From contig JACJYT010000004.1 in the NCBI GenBank assembly GCA_020635975.1, forward strand, positions 150,388-214,387: a stretch of DNA of 64,000 nt. The letters are read 5' to 3'. The position numbers are program-made. The stretch comes from Chitinophagales bacterium (GTDB lineage: Bacteria > Bacteroidota > Bacteroidia > Chitinophagales > UBA8649). Positions 12,001 through 21,000 of this stretch are shown here, one piece after another. Each line of letters starts with the position of its first letter. The stretch's first letter is position 1.

Positions 12001-15000
12001 CGTATAGAAAGGGAGCATTATTGTCTTGCCAAGGCTTTACAATTGGTTTTGGAGGAAATTGTTATAAAAATGGCCAAGCATGCGAAAGCCTTAACCGGCA
12101 GCAAGCAATTGTGTTTATCAGGTGGAGTAGCATTAAATTGTGTTGCCAATGGGGTTTTGCATGAAAAGGGACTTTTTGACGAAATTTATGTGCAACCGGC
12201 TTCAGGAGATGCAGGGAACGCTCTAGGCGCTGCATTAGCTGCCTATTACATGCACTATAAGAAAGAAAGAAAACAACTTATTGGTAAATCAGATATAATG
12301 AAAGCCTCAAGATTGGGTCCTGCATTTTCCGATTTAGAAATTTTAAGAGCAATAGAGAAATTTGAATTAAGCTATGATCTTTTAAGTGAAGAACAAAGTA
12401 TAGATTTTGCTGCAAAAGAACTATTAGAAGGTAAAACCATTGCTTGGTTTCAGGGTAGAATGGAGTTTGGTCCAAGAGCCCTAGGTGGAAGAAGTATTTT
12501 AGCCAATCCCCTATTGTCAGAAACCCAATCGAAATTAAATTTAAAAGTCAAGCAAAGAGAAAGCTTTAGGCCATTTGCTCCAATCATGTTGGAAGAAGAG
12601 TTTGTTCGATTATTTGGAAGGAAGTTCAGCTCACCATACATGTTGTTTGTTTTCAAAATATTGGAAAAATTTAGAAAGGAAACGGGCGAAACAAAAAGCG
12701 ATTTAATTGAAATTATTAATACCGTTCGATCCGAACTACCTGCGATTACTCATGTGGATTTTTCGGCTCGAATTCAAACAGTAAGTAAAGATAGCGATGC
12801 CAAGATGTTTGCTCTTTTAACTAAGTTTAAAGAACTAAGTGGCTATGGAGTTTTAGTAAATACTAGCTTTAATTTACGTGGAGAGCCCATTGTTTGTAGT
12901 CCAAAGGATGCAATAGCCTCTTTCTTGTCTACAGAGATGGATTATCTTATATTGGGAAATTTTATTTTGTCACGCGAAAATAATTTAGCTTTGCTAGCAA
13001 AGCATGTTGAAGTAAAACTAGATTAATATGGAGTTTTTAAAGGATATTTTTAAATTTTTGATGGAAAGGAAAAAATGGTGGTTACTCCCAATAATTTTGG
13101 CCTTACTTATACTGGGCTTGTTGTTGCTATTTGCCGAAAGTAGTGCCGTTGCTCCTTTTGTTTATCCAATGATATAGTTAATGAAGCAAGATCATTATAA
13201 AAATATTGGTATAGTAATTTTAGCCTTGGTGCTTTTAGCGCATTTTTTAAAGTCTAAATTTGATCTCGAAAATAATTATCTCCTTTTTGGAGTTCTAGCT
13301 TTCGGAGCGATACTCTATACTTTTGAATCTTTGGCAAAGGCTTTCTCAAAGCTTTGGATGAGTTTTGGTAAGGCTTTGGGCTTTGTCAATTCTAAAATCA
13401 TTCTTAGTGTATTTTTTGCTCTAATTCTGAGTCCACTAGCCTTACTTAAGCGATGCTTTGGCTCAAAAAATCTTGGTTCAAATTCCTCTGCATGGCTGCT
13501 TGTAGAAAATAAAGAAGAAGACTTTACCAAGCCTTGGTAAACTTATTTATCCTGTGCTCCTTTTAAACCAGAAATCACAAATTCTCCGTTAAAGAACACG
13601 TATTTAACTAAGCCGATAGCGTGACCACTTATTTCACTAAAATTTCGAAGAATGGAGGGCACATTGCTAAAAACATAGTAGGGCCGCATGTAGAAGGCTC
13701 TATAGAATTTCTTTTTTCGTTTGGTAAAGTTAAGCACTATTTGAGGATCCTTAAACTCGTTGGTATAAGGAAAAAGATTAAAGTTTACATCTTGTTTTAG
13801 TCGATCAAATAAGCTAGTGCCAGGATAAGGCGTAAGTGGATTAACCGAAGCAAAAGTTAGTTTTGCACGTATGGCGAAATCGATGGTTTTATTAAAATCG
13901 TCTTCGGTTTCTTCAGGAAATCCCGACATGAAGAAGCCTGTGGTTTCAATGCCGTGTTTACGACACAATAAGAGCGTTTCTATAGCTTCTTCTACATTAA
14001 TGTTCTTTTGATATAGATCTAGAATACGTTGACTGCCAGATTCTAGTCCGAAATAAATTCTGGTACAACCTGCCTTTTTCATCCAATGCAGCATTTCTGC
14101 ATTCAAATTATCTGTTCTACTTAAACAGCACCATTCTATGTTGAAATTTCTGTTTACGAGCTCCTTGCAAATCTCTATTACTCGACGTTTATTTACTGTA
14201 AAGGTGTCGTCGATGATTCGCAAAGACTTAATGCCGTAATTACTAACAAGGTTTTGAATTTCGTCTACAACTCGCTCCGGACTTTGTATGGTTAGCTTAC
14301 TTCCGTACGACTTTACACAAAAAGAGCAAGGATAAGGACAGCCCCGAGCAGTTTGAATTAGGCTATAAGGCCGAGGCAATACAGGCTCATAATATTTATC
14401 TACGGGTAAAATATCGTAGGCTGGTTGGGGCAATTCATTAGGATTTGGAATTCTTTTATCTTCCCCTTGTTGCACTATTTCACCATTAGAATTGAAAAGG
14501 ACTACGCCACTCACGGTTTCTAATTCTCTAGTCCCATTTAATGCGCCTAATAAATCCAGAAAGATAAAATCGGGTTCTCCCAATATAAGAAAATCTGCCT
14601 TGCTTTTCGCAATTACTTCTTTAGGAAATTGGGTGGCGTAATGACCAAATACTAAATATTTGCTATTGGGTAGGGCTTCTTTAATTTTCTCTACCTCTAG
14701 GCAATCTTCTTCTATACATTCTAAGCCTAGGATAGAAACTATTAGATTTGGCTTAAAATCTTTAGCAAGCTTGATGACCTCTTCTCGGCTTAAATTTTCT
14801 GCTATCGCATCTATTAATTTGATTTCCGATTGAAAAGATTCTCGAGCAATAGCCGCTAAGGAGATAAGTTCTAGCGGGGGAAACAAGGACTCAGGAGAAA
14901 CATAAGAGCACATATAACGCCTCGTTATTTGTTCTTTATTACTTAAGTTAATAAATAGTACCCTTTTCATTTATTCTCCTAATTTAAACAAATTTGGCAT

Positions 15001-18000: not shown

Positions 18001-21000
18001 AAACAAATCTTGATTCGTCGCTGTCGTTCCAAACGTGATGGCGTTGCGCATCAGAAAAGAGAATTACTTTTCCTTCCTCCCAACCTCTAGCTTCTTTTCC
18101 AACTTGAATTCCCATCTTTGGTAGGGGTTCTGGAATCTTTAAGCCTAGATGGCCTCTCATAGTAACATTGGTTTCTCCGATGTGAGCTAAAATTTTTGAA
18201 TGGCCTTTAAGACAAGTTACTTCAGCAAAGCTTAAATTCGGAATGGATTTGAGTAGCTGATAGGTTTTGGGGTAGCGCTTACAATTTTTGTGTTTCTGCC
18301 AAAGAAAATTCCAAAAATAAACATTTTGCCAAGCGGTTTTATCCGACAAATATGGGGGGTTTAAACTAGATTGCTCTAGCTCTTTTTTGCCATCTATATA
18401 CTCGGCAAACTCCTCTCTTATAACATGCCAATTGTCTTCTAATGTTTTAACCCAAGCTAAGTTTTGTGTTTCGAAAAACTCAGGCATATTTCCTTCATAG
18501 ATGTCGGTCTCTTTTAGGAAAAATATGGGTTTTTCATTTAGCATAAGAAGGTCTTTTGATATTAAGTTGTAAATTTAGCATTTTAAGAAATATATGGAAG
18601 CAAATACCTGCTTAAATGTGGCTTTAGTTGGTTATGGTTATTGGGGACCAAAACTAACTCGTAATATTCGTGAATCGTCGAATTTTAAATTGAAAATTCT
18701 AGTAGATAAGAAGCAAAGCCTCTTACATGAATTTAAGTTTTCTAATCCTGAAGTGGAAATTTCCAATGAGTTGGAGCTTGCATTAGCAGACGATAGTGTA
18801 AACTGTGTTGTAATTGCTAGTCCACCTAACACACATTTCGAAATAGCACAAAAAGCATTATTAGCAGGAAAGCATGTTCTCGTAGAAAAGCCTTTCACTA
18901 GTTCTTTTAAGGAGGCCTCTACTTTGGTTGACTTAGCAAAAGAAAAGGGACTTTGTTTAATGGTAGATTACACCTTTCTCTACAATGGCACCATAGAAAG
19001 TATTAAGAAACAAATTAAAAAGGAAGCTTTCGGAGAGCTTTTGTATATAGATTCTGTACGCATTAATTTGGGCATTTTTCAAAATGATGTTAATGTAGTT
19101 TTTGATTTAGCCTGTCATGATTTATCTATTTTTAATTACTTGTTAGAAGAGTTGCCTCTAAGTGTTCAGGCGGTAGGCATAGATGGCTTGGGTAATGGCC
19201 TAGAAAATATAGCCTATGTGTATTTGAAGTATAAGCAGCGCTTTGCCCATATAAATTGTTCCTGGTCTTCTCCAGTGAAGATTAGAAAAATGCTAATAGG
19301 TGGATCTAAAAGGGCTATTTTGTATAATGATATAGAACCTACCGATAAAATTAAAGTTTACGACAAGGGCGTCGTTTTTCAAGAAAGTAAAGAAAGAGAC
19401 GCCGCCTTGCAAGATTACAGAATGGGAGAGGTCTATATTCCTAAATACGATACTACAGAACCCTTGCAAAAAGTAGTTTCTAGTTTCTATCATGCCATAG
19501 TTAAGAAGCAAGCAAGCAATAGCGACGGACAAGATGCATTGATTGTTATGTTTATGCTAGAAATGATACAAAAATCTATAAATTTGAAGGGAAAAGAAAT
19601 TCAAATTGAATGGGAACAAGTTGGTCCATCATTATATTCTTATATAATGAGCAAGGGAATGTTGAAAGAGCCATTTTAGGTGTAGAGGAAGTACTCTCGC
19701 AGCTAGCTCCCAATAATTTTGAGATCATAATTATTAACGATGGAAGCACAGATAATAGCCATCAAATTATTCAAAATACCATCCAAAACAAAGAACATTT
19801 TAAATACTATAGGCAAGAAAACAATTTGGGTATAGGCAAAGCCCTAAGAAAGGGATATGAGTTGGCCCAAAACGAAAATGTTTGTGCTGTTCCAGGCGAT
19901 TGTCAGTTTAATTTTAAGGAACTTTTACTCTGTCCTAGTTTTGGGGAAAGGCAATTTGTATCTTTTTATAGAAGAAGAACCTATTATAATCCTTACCGAA
20001 TGTTCTTAAATCATTTTAATAGAGCAGTTAATTATTTTTTGCTTGGTTTAAAAATGAATGATGTTAATTGGATTAAAGTGTATAAGAAAAAGCAATTGGA
20101 AGAAATTGATTTTCAATTAACTAGCTCCTTAATTGAATCCGAAATTTGTGCTAAATTATTTGCACAAAGAATCCCTTGTATTGAAATTGAATCGGAGTAT
20201 TTAGATAGATTAGAAGATGAGGCCAAAGGGGGTTCCTTGAAAACGGTTAAACAAGCGGCGGGTGACTTATGGAAACTGATACACATTACTAGAAAATATA
20301 AAGCTAAGTTGCATGCAGCTAAAAACTAAAGTTCCGTTTTTTTCTCTTCAAGAGCAAAGCACAGCGCTCAAAGCAGAAGTTTTATCTGCCATCGAAAAAG
20401 TGATAGAGCAGAGCGATTATGTACTAGGAAAGGACCTTGTACAATTTGAAAAGTCTTTTGCTAGCTATTGCGAAAGTGCATATGCCTTGGCGGTTTCTAA
20501 TGGTACCGCAGCCATTTATGTTGCTCTTCGTGCCTTAAATATAAAAGAAGGAGATGAAGTTATTTTACCTTCGGCCACCTTTAGTGCTACAGCTTTAGCC
20601 ATTTGTCAGTTGGGCGCTACTCCAGTTTTTTGCGATATTGATGCTAGAACTTGGACCATAGATCCAGCAGACATAGAAAAGAAGATAAGCAATAAAACCA
20701 AGGCCATTATAGCAGTTCACTTATACGGTAACCCATGCAGAATGGATGCGCTTCTAGAATTAGCTGAAAAATATAAGATTGAATTAATTGAGGATGCCGC
20801 ACAAGCGCACGGCTCTAGTTTTAATAAGCAAAAAGTAGGATCTTTTGGCAGCATGGCTTGCTTTAGTTTTTATCCTAGCAAAAATTTAGGTTCTATGGGC
20901 GATGCTGGCGCTGTAGTTTACAATAATCCAAACTATACAGAATTCCTAGCTGCGATTAGAAATTGCGGAAAGAACTTTAAAGGAGAACATGAGTTTTTAG

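Follow-up and report, generated by a model that had tools for sequence, protein, structure and literature searches.

The window analysed here is a stretch of 64,000 nucleotides from a Chitinophagales bacterium (contig JACJYT010000004.1, positions 150,388 to 214,387 of the forward strand), in which two gene modules set an AspH-like Fe(II)/2-oxoglutarate (2OG) oxygenase next to radical S-adenosylmethionine (rSAM) enzymes of the B12-binding type. One module lies on the minus strand and the other on the plus strand, where it continues into a gene for a multi-transmembrane (multi-TM) protein of a family that we call BIGTM. The genes of both modules are given below (aa, amino acids; GT-C, glycosyltransferase of type C).

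17789-18544, minus strand: oxy1, AspH-like Fe(II)/2OG oxygenase, 251 aa (PF05118, E 2e-37)
16526-17776, minus strand: N-terminally TM-anchored protein of 416 aa, probably SGNH/GDSL-like (weak: GDS motif, GDSL_2 E 0.17)
14971-16533, minus strand: rSAM-A, radical SAM enzyme with B12-binding domain, 520 aa (Radical_SAM 78 bits, B12-binding 64 bits)
13543-14970, minus strand: rSAM-B, class-B-lineage radical SAM enzyme whose B12-binding domain is degenerate, 475 aa (Radical_SAM 94 bits)
56858-57640, plus strand: oxy2, AspH-like oxygenase paralogue, 260 aa, with the same tail as oxy1 (PF05118, E 5e-36)
57646-59205, plus strand: rSAM-C, B12-binding radical SAM enzyme, 519 aa (Radical_SAM 71 bits, B12-binding 63 bits)
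59209-60876, plus strand: BIGTM-2, multi-TM protein of 555 aa with a C-terminal soluble domain, GT-C-like (AlphaFold2 model, Foldseek)

In the minus-strand operon oxy1 is followed after 12 nt by the 416-aa open reading frame (ORF), which overlaps rSAM-A by 8 nt, and rSAM-B follows rSAM-A with a spacing of 0 nt. On the plus strand, a 5-nt gap separates oxy2 from rSAM-C and a 3-nt gap separates rSAM-C from BIGTM-2. Both modules are thus translationally coupled, with spacings of 0-12 nt or overlap. The coordinates of the oxygenase, rSAM and 416-aa ORFs agree exactly with those of a first-pass annotation of the window, which had described a duplicated module. Indeed, two paralogous modules are present, and a gapless alignment of oxy1 with oxy2, tail included, gives 34% identity over 235 residues, but the paralogy is ancient rather than a recent duplication since the window rSAMs share merely about 25-27% identity with each other; moreover, the two modules differ in gene content. 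The name SGNH given to the 416-aa ORF is based on a GDS motif (within 'LLIGDSFVWG') and on weak GDSL matches (GDSL_2 E 0.17, and E 0.01 for an SGNH-like paralogue at 48025-49257). The KD19 hydropathy of this protein peaks at 2.93 at residues 1-26.

In order to follow the pair beyond the window, species-representative genomes were scanned with the oxygenase alignment, which gave 33 loci, nearly all from metagenome-assembled genomes (MAGs) of Chitinophagales/Bacteroidota, and the ORFs of these loci were annotated by comparison with the window proteins. This annotation counts 47 oxygenase and 65 rSAM genes; B12-rSAM homologues are present in 29 of the 33 loci (in 22 of the 23 that are 15 kb or longer) and lie within 300 bp of an oxygenase in 19 of the 33. 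A separate de novo clustering took in 49 oxygenases, next to which rSAM genes stand far more often than any other kind (30 neighbour slots), and 26 of the 49 have a same-strand rSAM gene at a distance of at most 150 bp. Gene order was then permuted inside each locus 10,000 times, which controls for the rSAM-richness of these regions: 29 oxygenase-rSAM adjacencies are observed versus a mean of 14.4 in the shuffles, none of which reaches 29. The adjacency of oxygenase and B12-rSAM genes exceeds chance, and the recurrent pairing proposed in the first-pass annotation is conserved in other genomes, far beyond the window. It is replicated in three additional loci with precomputed Pfam annotation (L040, L041 and L042), of which L041 is a compact cluster that holds DegT, B12-rSAM genes, two oxygenases and a protein of 533 aa. 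The arrangement of the pair varies, with the oxygenase upstream of the rSAM, the rSAM upstream of the oxygenase or the two genes divergent. As the first-pass annotation had supposed for glycan loci, no description of an AspH-like/B12-rSAM pairing was found in the literature, nor one of B12-rSAM enzymes in O-antigen/lipopolysaccharide loci.

Larger arrangements recur around the pair as well. A GFO/IDH/MocA oxidoreductase and a small family 2 glycosyltransferase (GT2), in some cases with a DegT-type aminotransferase, are linked in varied order to the oxygenase-rSAM cassette in the window and in L005, L006, L013, L015, L016 and L042, the oxidoreductase being linked to the oxygenase in L005, L006, L013, L016 and L042. 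Counterparts of the oxy2-rSAM-C-BIGTM operon are present in L019, L020 and L040, and the family of the 416-aa ORF follows the oxygenase in L007, L014, L035 and L042. Copy numbers in related loci go up to 6 rSAM, 3 AspH-like and 6 PhyH genes per 20 kb. Judged by sequence, particular oxygenase subclades may tend to pair with particular rSAM clades, a weak and threshold-dependent trend (permutation p 0.14 for a four-clade split; 0.59, 0.017 and 0.04 at distance cuts of 0.50, 0.46 and 0.42), and the rSAM partners of one oxygenase clade come from several clades. One of these loci, L005 (JAFMKE010000158.1), is a contig of 4 kb that was binned with a Verrucomicrobia MAG, on which the oxidoreductase gene in one direction and the oxygenase and rSAM-A genes in the other are 64-75% identical to those of the window; it is probably a mis-binned Chitinophagales contig and less probably the result of horizontal transfer.

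Both oxygenases match PF05118 well above its gathering cutoff of 22.6 bits (128.8 bits for oxy1 and 124.2 bits for oxy2), and oxy2 has its own homologue clade. On alignment to human AspH, H121 and H169 correspond to the iron ligands H679 and H725 and R179 to the 2OG-binding R735. These three residues are invariant across 22 diverse homologues, with the motif HxG as in AspH ('HIG' and 'HYG' in the window oxygenases, a metal site of the two-His HxG...H type). The first-pass annotation had looked to His/Asp/His iron ligands, which was a mis-specified expectation, AspH itself having two His ligands; the catalytic residues of the window oxygenases are intact. A 2OG-dependent hydroxylase activity of these AspH-type enzymes is predicted.

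In the AlphaFold2 model of oxy1 (pLDDT 92) the double-stranded β-helix (DSBH) core extends to residue 187 and is followed by helices at 189-215 and 223-246. Foldseek superposes the core on AspH (5apa; E 6e-15, TM-score 0.77 (target), rmsd 2.8 Å, 187 columns, ~27% identity), the core alone being matched, and it found no counterpart of the predicted C-terminal helical hairpin among solved structures. The second helix of this hairpin is predicted to carry the motif W-x-x-YLP-x-Q, in which W237, Y240, L241, P242 and Q244 are invariant in the 22 homologues, in agreement with the tail that the first-pass annotation had seen in both oxygenases. It had also called this tail a membrane tail: the conserved hydrophobic character stands, but its KD19 peak lies below that of a classical TM helix, and a monotopic membrane anchor is plausible.

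To our knowledge, the bacterial AspH-like family is functionally known through the lipid hydroxylases LpxO and OlsC alone, from which the first-pass annotation had drawn an analogy with the hydroxylation of acyl chains. The window oxygenases share with them the Pfam family and a hydrophobic C-terminus, which suggests an action at the membrane, and OlsC, then LpxO, are the best NCBIfam matches of both. However, the scores are 106.2 and 96.3 bits for the OlsC equivalog (cutoff 450; profile positions 42-212 of 259 covered) and 62.2 and 65.9 bits for the LpxO equivalog (cutoff 500). Furthermore, LpxO has an HxD...H triad and TM helices at both termini (motif 'HRD' and KD19 peaks of 1.7-2.1 in the K. 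aerogenes and A. baumannii proteins), whereas the window oxygenases have the HxG...H site, lack a TM helix at the N-terminus and peak at 1.3-1.4 at the C-terminus, as against the strongly hydrophobic C-terminal TM helix of LpxO. The W-x-x-YLP-x-Q motif is missing from the Klebsiella and Acinetobacter LpxO, and LpxO genes are unpaired with rSAM genes in two reference loci. No lipid A or ornithine-lipid biosynthesis genes (including olsB/olsA and olsF) were seen among the scanned ORFs of the 64-kb window. The window oxygenases are not LpxO or OlsC.

The acyl-hydroxylation analogy is further weakened by the wider family. An exhaustive profile search yielded 262 clusters (50% identity) at E<=1e-30, among which the strict tail motif is limited to the subfamily of the window. 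Distant relatives of ~250 aa end in a hydrophobic helix followed by basic residues, and HxG[D/E]TN is found in 63 of 112. All five distant relatives that were sampled lie in glycan clusters with GT2 and, in part, GT-C genes (YfhO, PMT_2), so that the oxygenase family as a whole is glycan-associated; a B12-rSAM is present in 0 of the five, and the rSAM pairing is an innovation of the Chitinophagales subfamily. The clusters of distant relatives add Cupin_8, sulfotransferases, KAS-III/ACP/SDR/GNAT genes or methyltransferases. In L043-L045, positions ~3300-9600 of each hold two KAS-III genes, a 76-78-aa ACP-sized ORF, an SDR, a GT2, a GNAT, an AspH-like gene and a Gal-3-O-sulfotransferase-like gene, together with Cupin_8 and several more sulfotransferases; this content suggests an N-acylated, hydroxylated and sulfated sugar as the product of a separate, uncharacterised system.

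The CxxxCxxC motif is intact in all three rSAMs of the modules (CPFNCQFC at residue 202 of rSAM-A, CPYPCSFC in rSAM-B and CPYTCTFC in rSAM-C), and their radical SAM core matches PF04055 with 71-94 bits. The B12-binding domain (PF02310) is above cutoff in rSAM-A (64.1 bits) and rSAM-C (62.6 bits), as the first-pass annotation had it, but that of rSAM-B, which had been called B12-type too, is sub-threshold (21.5 bits versus a cutoff of 32.1), and the orthologues of rSAM-B carry the Radical_SAM annotation alone. The closest PDB match of rSAM-B is AprD4, whose homologous domain binds no cobalamin (PMC12931638), and that of rSAM-C is QCMT (9ccb, 82 bits). The reference class-B families are all matched, with E 1e-20 to 1e-59, but no characterised equivalog in NCBIfam (HpnJ, BchE, HpnR, PhpK/Sden_1168, BzaD, QCMT and others) is approached by the window rSAMs: HpnJ reaches 199 versus 578 bits and Sden_1168 185 versus 575 bits, and the best matches of rSAM-A, HpnJ and BchE, are far under cutoff. 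Hence the enzymes belong to no characterised cofactor-biosynthesis equivalog, a placement that had been named at first pass as an argument against a role in envelope chemistry. Most cobalamin-type (class-B) radical SAM enzymes are without known function according to a 2026 review (PMC12931638). Close structural relatives of the window rSAMs are not all methylases, as they comprise AprD4 (a cobalamin-free sugar diol dehydratase), OxsB (ring-contracting) and QCMT (a protein methylase). Methylation is the commonest class-B rSAM reaction, and by analogy a joint chemistry of methylation by the rSAM and hydroxylation by the oxygenase is plausible.

A very large glycan-type locus takes up the window from ~6.7 kb onward, and the features around the two modules are as follows.

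6728-9214, minus strand: multi-TM protein of 828 aa with TPR repeats, PMT_2/TMTC-like GT-C (TPR Pfam; homology to an L040 protein)
18594-19679, plus strand: first GFO/IDH/MocA oxidoreductase, divergent from oxy1 with a 49-bp spacer (PF01408)
19610-20329, plus strand: small GT2, 239 aa, candidate polyprenyl-phosphate sugar synthase (PF00535)
20313-21419, plus strand: DegT/PseC-type sugar aminotransferase (PseC 272 bits, ArnB 232 bits, both below cutoff)
23034-24224, minus strand: WbuX-type N-acetyl-sugar amidotransferase, a marker of glycan context (TIGR03573, 216 bits versus a cutoff of 203)
50522-52048, minus strand: interrupted fourth B12-rSAM gene (tblastn versus rSAM-C)
52062-53150, minus strand: radical SAM enzyme, 362 aa, not B12-type (PF04055; NCBIfam matches sub-threshold)
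53173-53886, minus strand: second small GT2, 237 aa (PF00535; best NCBIfam match ArnC)
53893-54858, minus strand: second GFO/IDH/MocA oxidoreductase, first gene of its operon (PF01408)
55053-56699, plus strand: BIGTM-1, multi-TM protein of 548 aa, upstream of oxy2 (alignment, 17% identity)
60965-62653, plus strand: BIGTM-3, multi-TM paralogue of 562 aa (alignment, 21% identity; same cluster as BIGTM-2)
62752-63642, plus strand: PhyH-family Fe(II)/2OG dioxygenase (PF05721, E 2e-22)

The glycan-type content comprises SDR epimerases/dehydratases, the two GFO/IDH/MocA oxidoreductases, DegT, WbuX, two carbamoyltransferases with an SxtJ-like partner and three small GT2s, and further genes encode an asparagine synthase, a twitch-rSAM, a UbiA prenyltransferase, a CFA-synthase-like methyltransferase, PhyH dioxygenases and multi-TM proteins without a family. 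The WbuX and carbamoyltransferase markers pass their thresholds. The best NCBIfam match of the first GFO/IDH/MocA protein is UDP-GlcNAc 3-dehydrogenase (109 bits, below cutoff), and PF01041 is called on a gene of L001 identical to the DegT gene. The three GT2s (236-239 aa) match ArnC, AglJ, PpgS, GtrB and DPMS, all weakly, and are without the C-terminal TM helices of GtrB/ArnC; in the PDB, the one at 19610-20329 is closest to GtrB sll0501 and ArnC, both weak, and the one at 53173-53886 matches TarP, Dol-P-Man synthase and ArnC. The operon that begins with the second GFO/IDH/MocA gene continues with a GT2 and the 362-aa rSAM and ends with the fourth B12-rSAM gene, with spacings of 6, 22 and 13 nt. 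In one frame, tblastn aligns this last gene with rSAM-C over 500 aa at 59.6% identity, apart from a single in-frame stop, TAA at 51662-51664. The ORF listing shows its C-terminal 306 aa alone; either the gene is a pseudogene or the assembly is in error here.

The BIGTM proteins gave no Pfam or NCBIfam match, and a profile search of PDB sequences was empty. In the AlphaFold2 model of BIGTM-2 (pLDDT 89) the TM helices extend to residue ~423 and residues 425-555 form an alpha/beta domain; the top Foldseek match of the model, and its sole coherent fold match, is PglB with a probability of 0.98. The motif 'VFDDSYD' (residues 29-35) is conserved after TM1, D54 is near-invariant and R133, R170, E172 and E228 are invariant. 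This layout is the one by which GT-C enzymes are recognised, that is a multi-TM N-terminal domain, an acidic motif in the first external loop and a C-terminal soluble domain. The family is found in 13 loci; BIGTM-1 has multiple TM segments and weakly matches a BIGTM-like gene of L040. This unannotated family of ~550 aa is a candidate family of GT-C transferases. Canonical GT-C enzymes (PMT_2, YfhO) also adjoin members of the oxygenase family, PMT_2 or YfhO being present in L044 and L046, and in L040 a PMT_2-TPR GT-C gene is directly upstream of an oxy2-type gene. The 828-aa protein of the window has ~9 TM-like segments and C-terminal TPR repeats, and its N-terminal TM region is 40% identical to this L040 protein; the architecture recalls the eukaryotic TMTC protein O-mannosyltransferases. 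A 295-aa ORF (9207-10094, minus strand), upstream of the 828-aa gene and overlapping it, has a faint GT8 match (E 0.006). In 12 related loci an MprF-type flippase-like gene, LPG_synthase_TM (PF03706, 100 bits), is present, often adjoining the oxygenase.

Other genes of the locus were noted as well. About eight TM-anchored, weakly GDSL/SGNH-like proteins are encoded, five of them paralogues in an uncommon tandem run on the minus strand (25701-26822, 27746-28765, 28762-29859, 29863-30921 and 31025-32152) and three outside it (16526-17776, 48025-49257 and 49271-50491); related clades adjoin oxygenases in other loci. A NodU/CmcH-type carbamoyltransferase gene (11170-13026, plus strand), a 49-aa single-TM ORF (13028-13177) and an SxtJ-family gene (13181-13540) resemble the SxtI/J/K arrangement of saxitoxin, yet in a glycan locus, and a second carbamoyltransferase gene lies at 21406-23034. 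A sub-cluster at 33329-38572 (minus strand) encodes an rSAM with an N-terminal twitch domain, an asparagine synthase, the UbiA prenyltransferase and the CFA-synthase-like methyltransferase, and its ORF 33329-34759 scores just above the NF033640 cutoff. UbiA and the methyltransferase recur in L008 and L011, and UbiA also in L013 and L040, so that the sub-cluster could provide a dedicated prenyl carrier or a lipid; a likeness of UbiA to DPPR synthase was dropped as evidence, the matches being weak and generic for prenyltransferases. Three proteins of 470-475 aa without a family (40837-42264 and 46542-47954 on the minus strand, 24265-25689 on the plus strand) may be more membrane transferases, flippases or polymerases. 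The first two are paralogous and are found in 5 loci, and one of them faintly matches DUF6056 over its full length (E 0.25).

PhyH-family genes are present in 14 related loci, where they number as many as 6, and PhyH arrays, including a 635-aa double-PhyH protein, stand beside oxygenase/rSAM genes in L007, L026, L028, L030, L034, L035 and L037. Related loci also carry Cupin_8/JmjC oxygenases (11 loci) and ABC-2 permeases, and L040 holds two WelO5-type (halogenase-like) 2OG enzymes. The DUF1800/DUF1501 gene pairs that flank oxygenase loci in L009, L023, L028 and L029 are probably unrelated neighbours. No cobalamin riboswitch or other RNA signal and no tRNA was found within the 64-kb window.

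With a probability of roughly 40%, we favour a reading in which the oxygenase and its B12-rSAM partner(s) form a co-inherited tailoring cassette that would act on a membrane-associated, probably polyprenyl-phosphate-linked, sugar before its transfer by a GT-C enzyme. This reading starts from what is observed, namely the domain content, the intact catalytic motifs, the conserved adjacency and the glycan-type context, and would extend it to the substrate, the order of steps, the rSAM chemistry and the membrane association. The cytoplasmic SDR epimerases/dehydratases, GFO/IDH/MocA oxidoreductases, DegT, WbuX and carbamoyltransferases would make an unusual amino sugar, which a small GT2 would attach to polyprenyl phosphate in the manner of ArnC, GtrB or DPM1. 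The oxygenase, anchored by its hairpin at the cytoplasmic face of the membrane, would then hydroxylate the lipid-linked sugar, or its acyl substituent, at an unactivated C-H, while the rSAM partner(s) would methylate the same substrate at carbon, or rearrange it, by radical chemistry. Tailoring of polyprenyl-phosphate-linked sugars has precedents in ArnD, NaxD and DprE1/E2. After flipping, for which related loci encode the MprF-type flippase-like protein, a GT-C(-like) BIGTM or PMT_2-TPR protein would move the modified sugar onto a periplasmic glycan or protein acceptor, and the TM-anchored SGNH-like proteins may attach or strip acyl groups. The first-pass annotation had named a lipid or a lipid-linked moiety as the substrate; the lipid-linked moiety is retained here as a polyprenyl-phosphate-linked sugar, but the analogy with acyl-chain hydroxylation is not.

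Several points weigh against this reading. The oxygenase tail is an aromatic hydrophobic stretch of ~15 residues whose KD19 peak of 1.3-1.4 is below the hydropathy of a classical TM helix, so that it may be a protein-protein interface instead of an anchor. The likeness of the GT2s to polyprenyl-phosphate glycosyltransferases is weak and common to other GT-A enzymes, a small GT2 lies within 10 kb in just 8 of the 23 long loci, and a flippase-like gene was not identified in the window. The GT-C assignment of BIGTM depends on a single weak Foldseek match (E 0.02, TM-score 0.38). The nearest characterised relatives act elsewhere, AspH and QCMT on proteins and OlsC on lipid acyl chains. Moreover, the loci are phylogenetically related and the shuffle and count statistics hence overstate independence, and since every locus is of MAG or metagenome origin and all the evidence is comparative-genomic, from uncultured organisms, confidence is limited.

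Four other explanations have been considered. In the one that underlies the first-pass annotation, an LpxO/OlsC-like enzyme would hydroxylate an acyl chain, and methylation or cross-linking by the B12-rSAMs would fall on the same fatty-acyl or isoprenoid chain of a membrane lipid, for instance lipid A, an aminolipid or a prenyl lipid, as HpnP/HpnR or the enzymes of glycerol dialkyl glycerol tetraether (GDGT) and ladderane lipids do. The rank of OlsC and LpxO among the NCBIfam matches, the hydrophobic tail, the occurrence of the lipid-acting HpnJ, HpnR and rSAM_ladder_B12 among the many other rSAM matches, the UbiA and CMAS/CFA-like genes (window, L008, L011, L013 and L040) and the plentiful PhyH enzymes all agree with it. 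We nevertheless consider it improbable, given scores of 62-106 bits versus cutoffs of 450-500, a different metal site, no N-terminal TM helix, a tail motif not present in LpxO, the lack of lipid A/ornithine-lipid genes among the scanned ORFs and an oxygenase family that tracks clusters of GT2/GT-C, sugar aminotransferases and sulfotransferases. A second explanation is a cytoplasmic tailoring of a soluble nucleotide (NDP)-activated sugar by both enzymes, ahead of its loading onto lipid, in which the tail would dock partner enzymes instead of anchoring the oxygenase in the membrane. The cassette is indeed closely linked to GFO/IDH/MocA, DegT, SDR epimerase, FdtA and WbuX genes, AprD4, GenK and other class-B-lineage rSAMs use soluble sugars, and the tail is under the TM threshold in hydropathy. 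However, the cassette is operonic with the multi-TM BIGTM, LPG_synthase_TM and PMT_2 genes too and not with NDP-sugar enzymes alone, and distant relatives keep the aromatic, basic-flanked C-terminal helix typical of interfacial anchors, so this explanation also seems to us an improbable one.

A peptide or protein substrate is a rather more distant prospect. Here the pair would carry out a proteusin-like poly-C-methylation and hydroxylation, or modify exported proteins, and the TPR GT-C would then glycosylate the product. The classic role of AspH and Cupin_8/JmjC enzymes is to hydroxylate proteins, rSAM-C has the protein methylase QCMT as its nearest solved relative, ApyD and rSAM_ocin_1, both families of ribosomally synthesised, post-translationally modified peptides (RiPPs), occur among the rSAM matches, the multi-paralogue arrays recall proteusin clusters, and both the PglB match of BIGTM and the TMTC likeness of PMT_2-TPR would fit such a substrate. 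In contrast, the RiPP rSAM families all score far under their cutoffs, and neither a leader peptidase nor a C39 transporter nor a RiPP recognition protein was detected. The RiPP version was also tried through its precursors and rejected: no family of 20-95-aa intergenic ORFs is common to any two of 34 loci (E<=1e-3), and clustering of ORFs of at least 50 aa gave no precursor-like family. Finally, the O2-dependent oxygenase and an O2-independent BchE-like rSAM might perform the same oxidation, as do AcsF/BchE and HemF/HemN, so that the glycan could be decorated in the presence as well as in the absence of O2. All three rSAMs have BchE among their highest-ranking NCBIfam similarities (138-178 bits, below cutoff), and the presence together of O2-requiring and O2-sensitive enzymes is otherwise unusual. 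Yet copy numbers, at 47 oxygenases versus 66 rSAMs, are not 1:1, a given oxygenase clade has partners from several rSAM clades, distant oxygenase relatives occur without an rSAM, and translational coupling indicates co-expression rather than alternative use; we hold this explanation to be very unlikely.

A broader version of the reading that we favour, the tailoring of a membrane-associated sugar, would be that the AspH-like/cobalamin-rSAM pairs and arrays of Chitinophagales hydroxylate and C-alkylate sugars carried on polyprenyl phosphate, and that the branched or radical-modified products are installed on the cell surface by a new GT-C-like family. Stated in full it is speculative and we regard it as doubtful. 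If true, it would be the first radical-SAM/B12 chemistry assigned to the diversification of bacterial envelope glycans and would give the AspH family a new substrate class; it predicts surface sugars with radical C-methylation or rearrangement plus C-H hydroxylation, unseen so far in envelope glycans. The large copy-number variation between related genomes recalls antigenic or phage-receptor diversification, and the toolkit of surface-glycan variation would thereby be extended. In any case, the pairing inside GT2/GT-C loci offers both enzyme families a testable substrate hypothesis.

Compared with known systems, the window oxygenases have the same DSBH core as human AspH, the same uncommon two-His iron site and the Arg equivalent to R735. 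In contrast to AspH they have no TPR domain and no N-terminal membrane/ER region, they add the C-terminal hairpin of ~60 residues, and their context is that of bacterial glycan loci whereas that of AspH is EGF-domain proteins. The rSAMs share with the class-B enzymes (HpnJ, BchE, Sden_1168/PhpK, GenK, QCMT and AprD4) an N-terminal Rossmann-like B12 domain and the CxxxCxxC radical SAM core, but the B12 domain is degenerate in the rSAM-B lineage, no equivalog cutoff is neared, and a systematic adjacency to an AspH-like oxygenase is undescribed for those families in the literature found. The oxygenases TIGR04324/TIGR04436 and the rSAM NF033640 of the 'sporadic carbohydrate cluster' are curator-noted, uncharacterised families of carbohydrate clusters, to which the PhyH-like proteins of the window show weak matches for TIGR04324/TIGR04436, although these are other families than the AspH-like/B12-rSAM pair.

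The closest systems as a whole are the three-component glycosylation systems built on polyprenyl-phosphate sugars, namely GtrA/B/C, ArnC/ArnD/ArnE-F/ArnT, CsbB/GtcA/YfhO and the mycobacterial DPA pathway (DprE1/E2, Emb/Aft). The likeness lies in the clustering of a small GT2 with a GT-C(-like) protein, with a flippase-like protein in related loci, and in the proposed tailoring of the lipid-linked sugar, for which ArnD, NaxD and DprE1/E2 set the precedent. The difference lies in the unprecedented tailoring arrays of B12-rSAM, AspH-like, PhyH-like and Cupin_8 enzymes and in the unrecognised BIGTM proteins. The GT2/flippase/GT-C logic is already known, as are the superfamilies of the components, and it is the radical and oxidative tailoring set together with the BIGTM family that is new.

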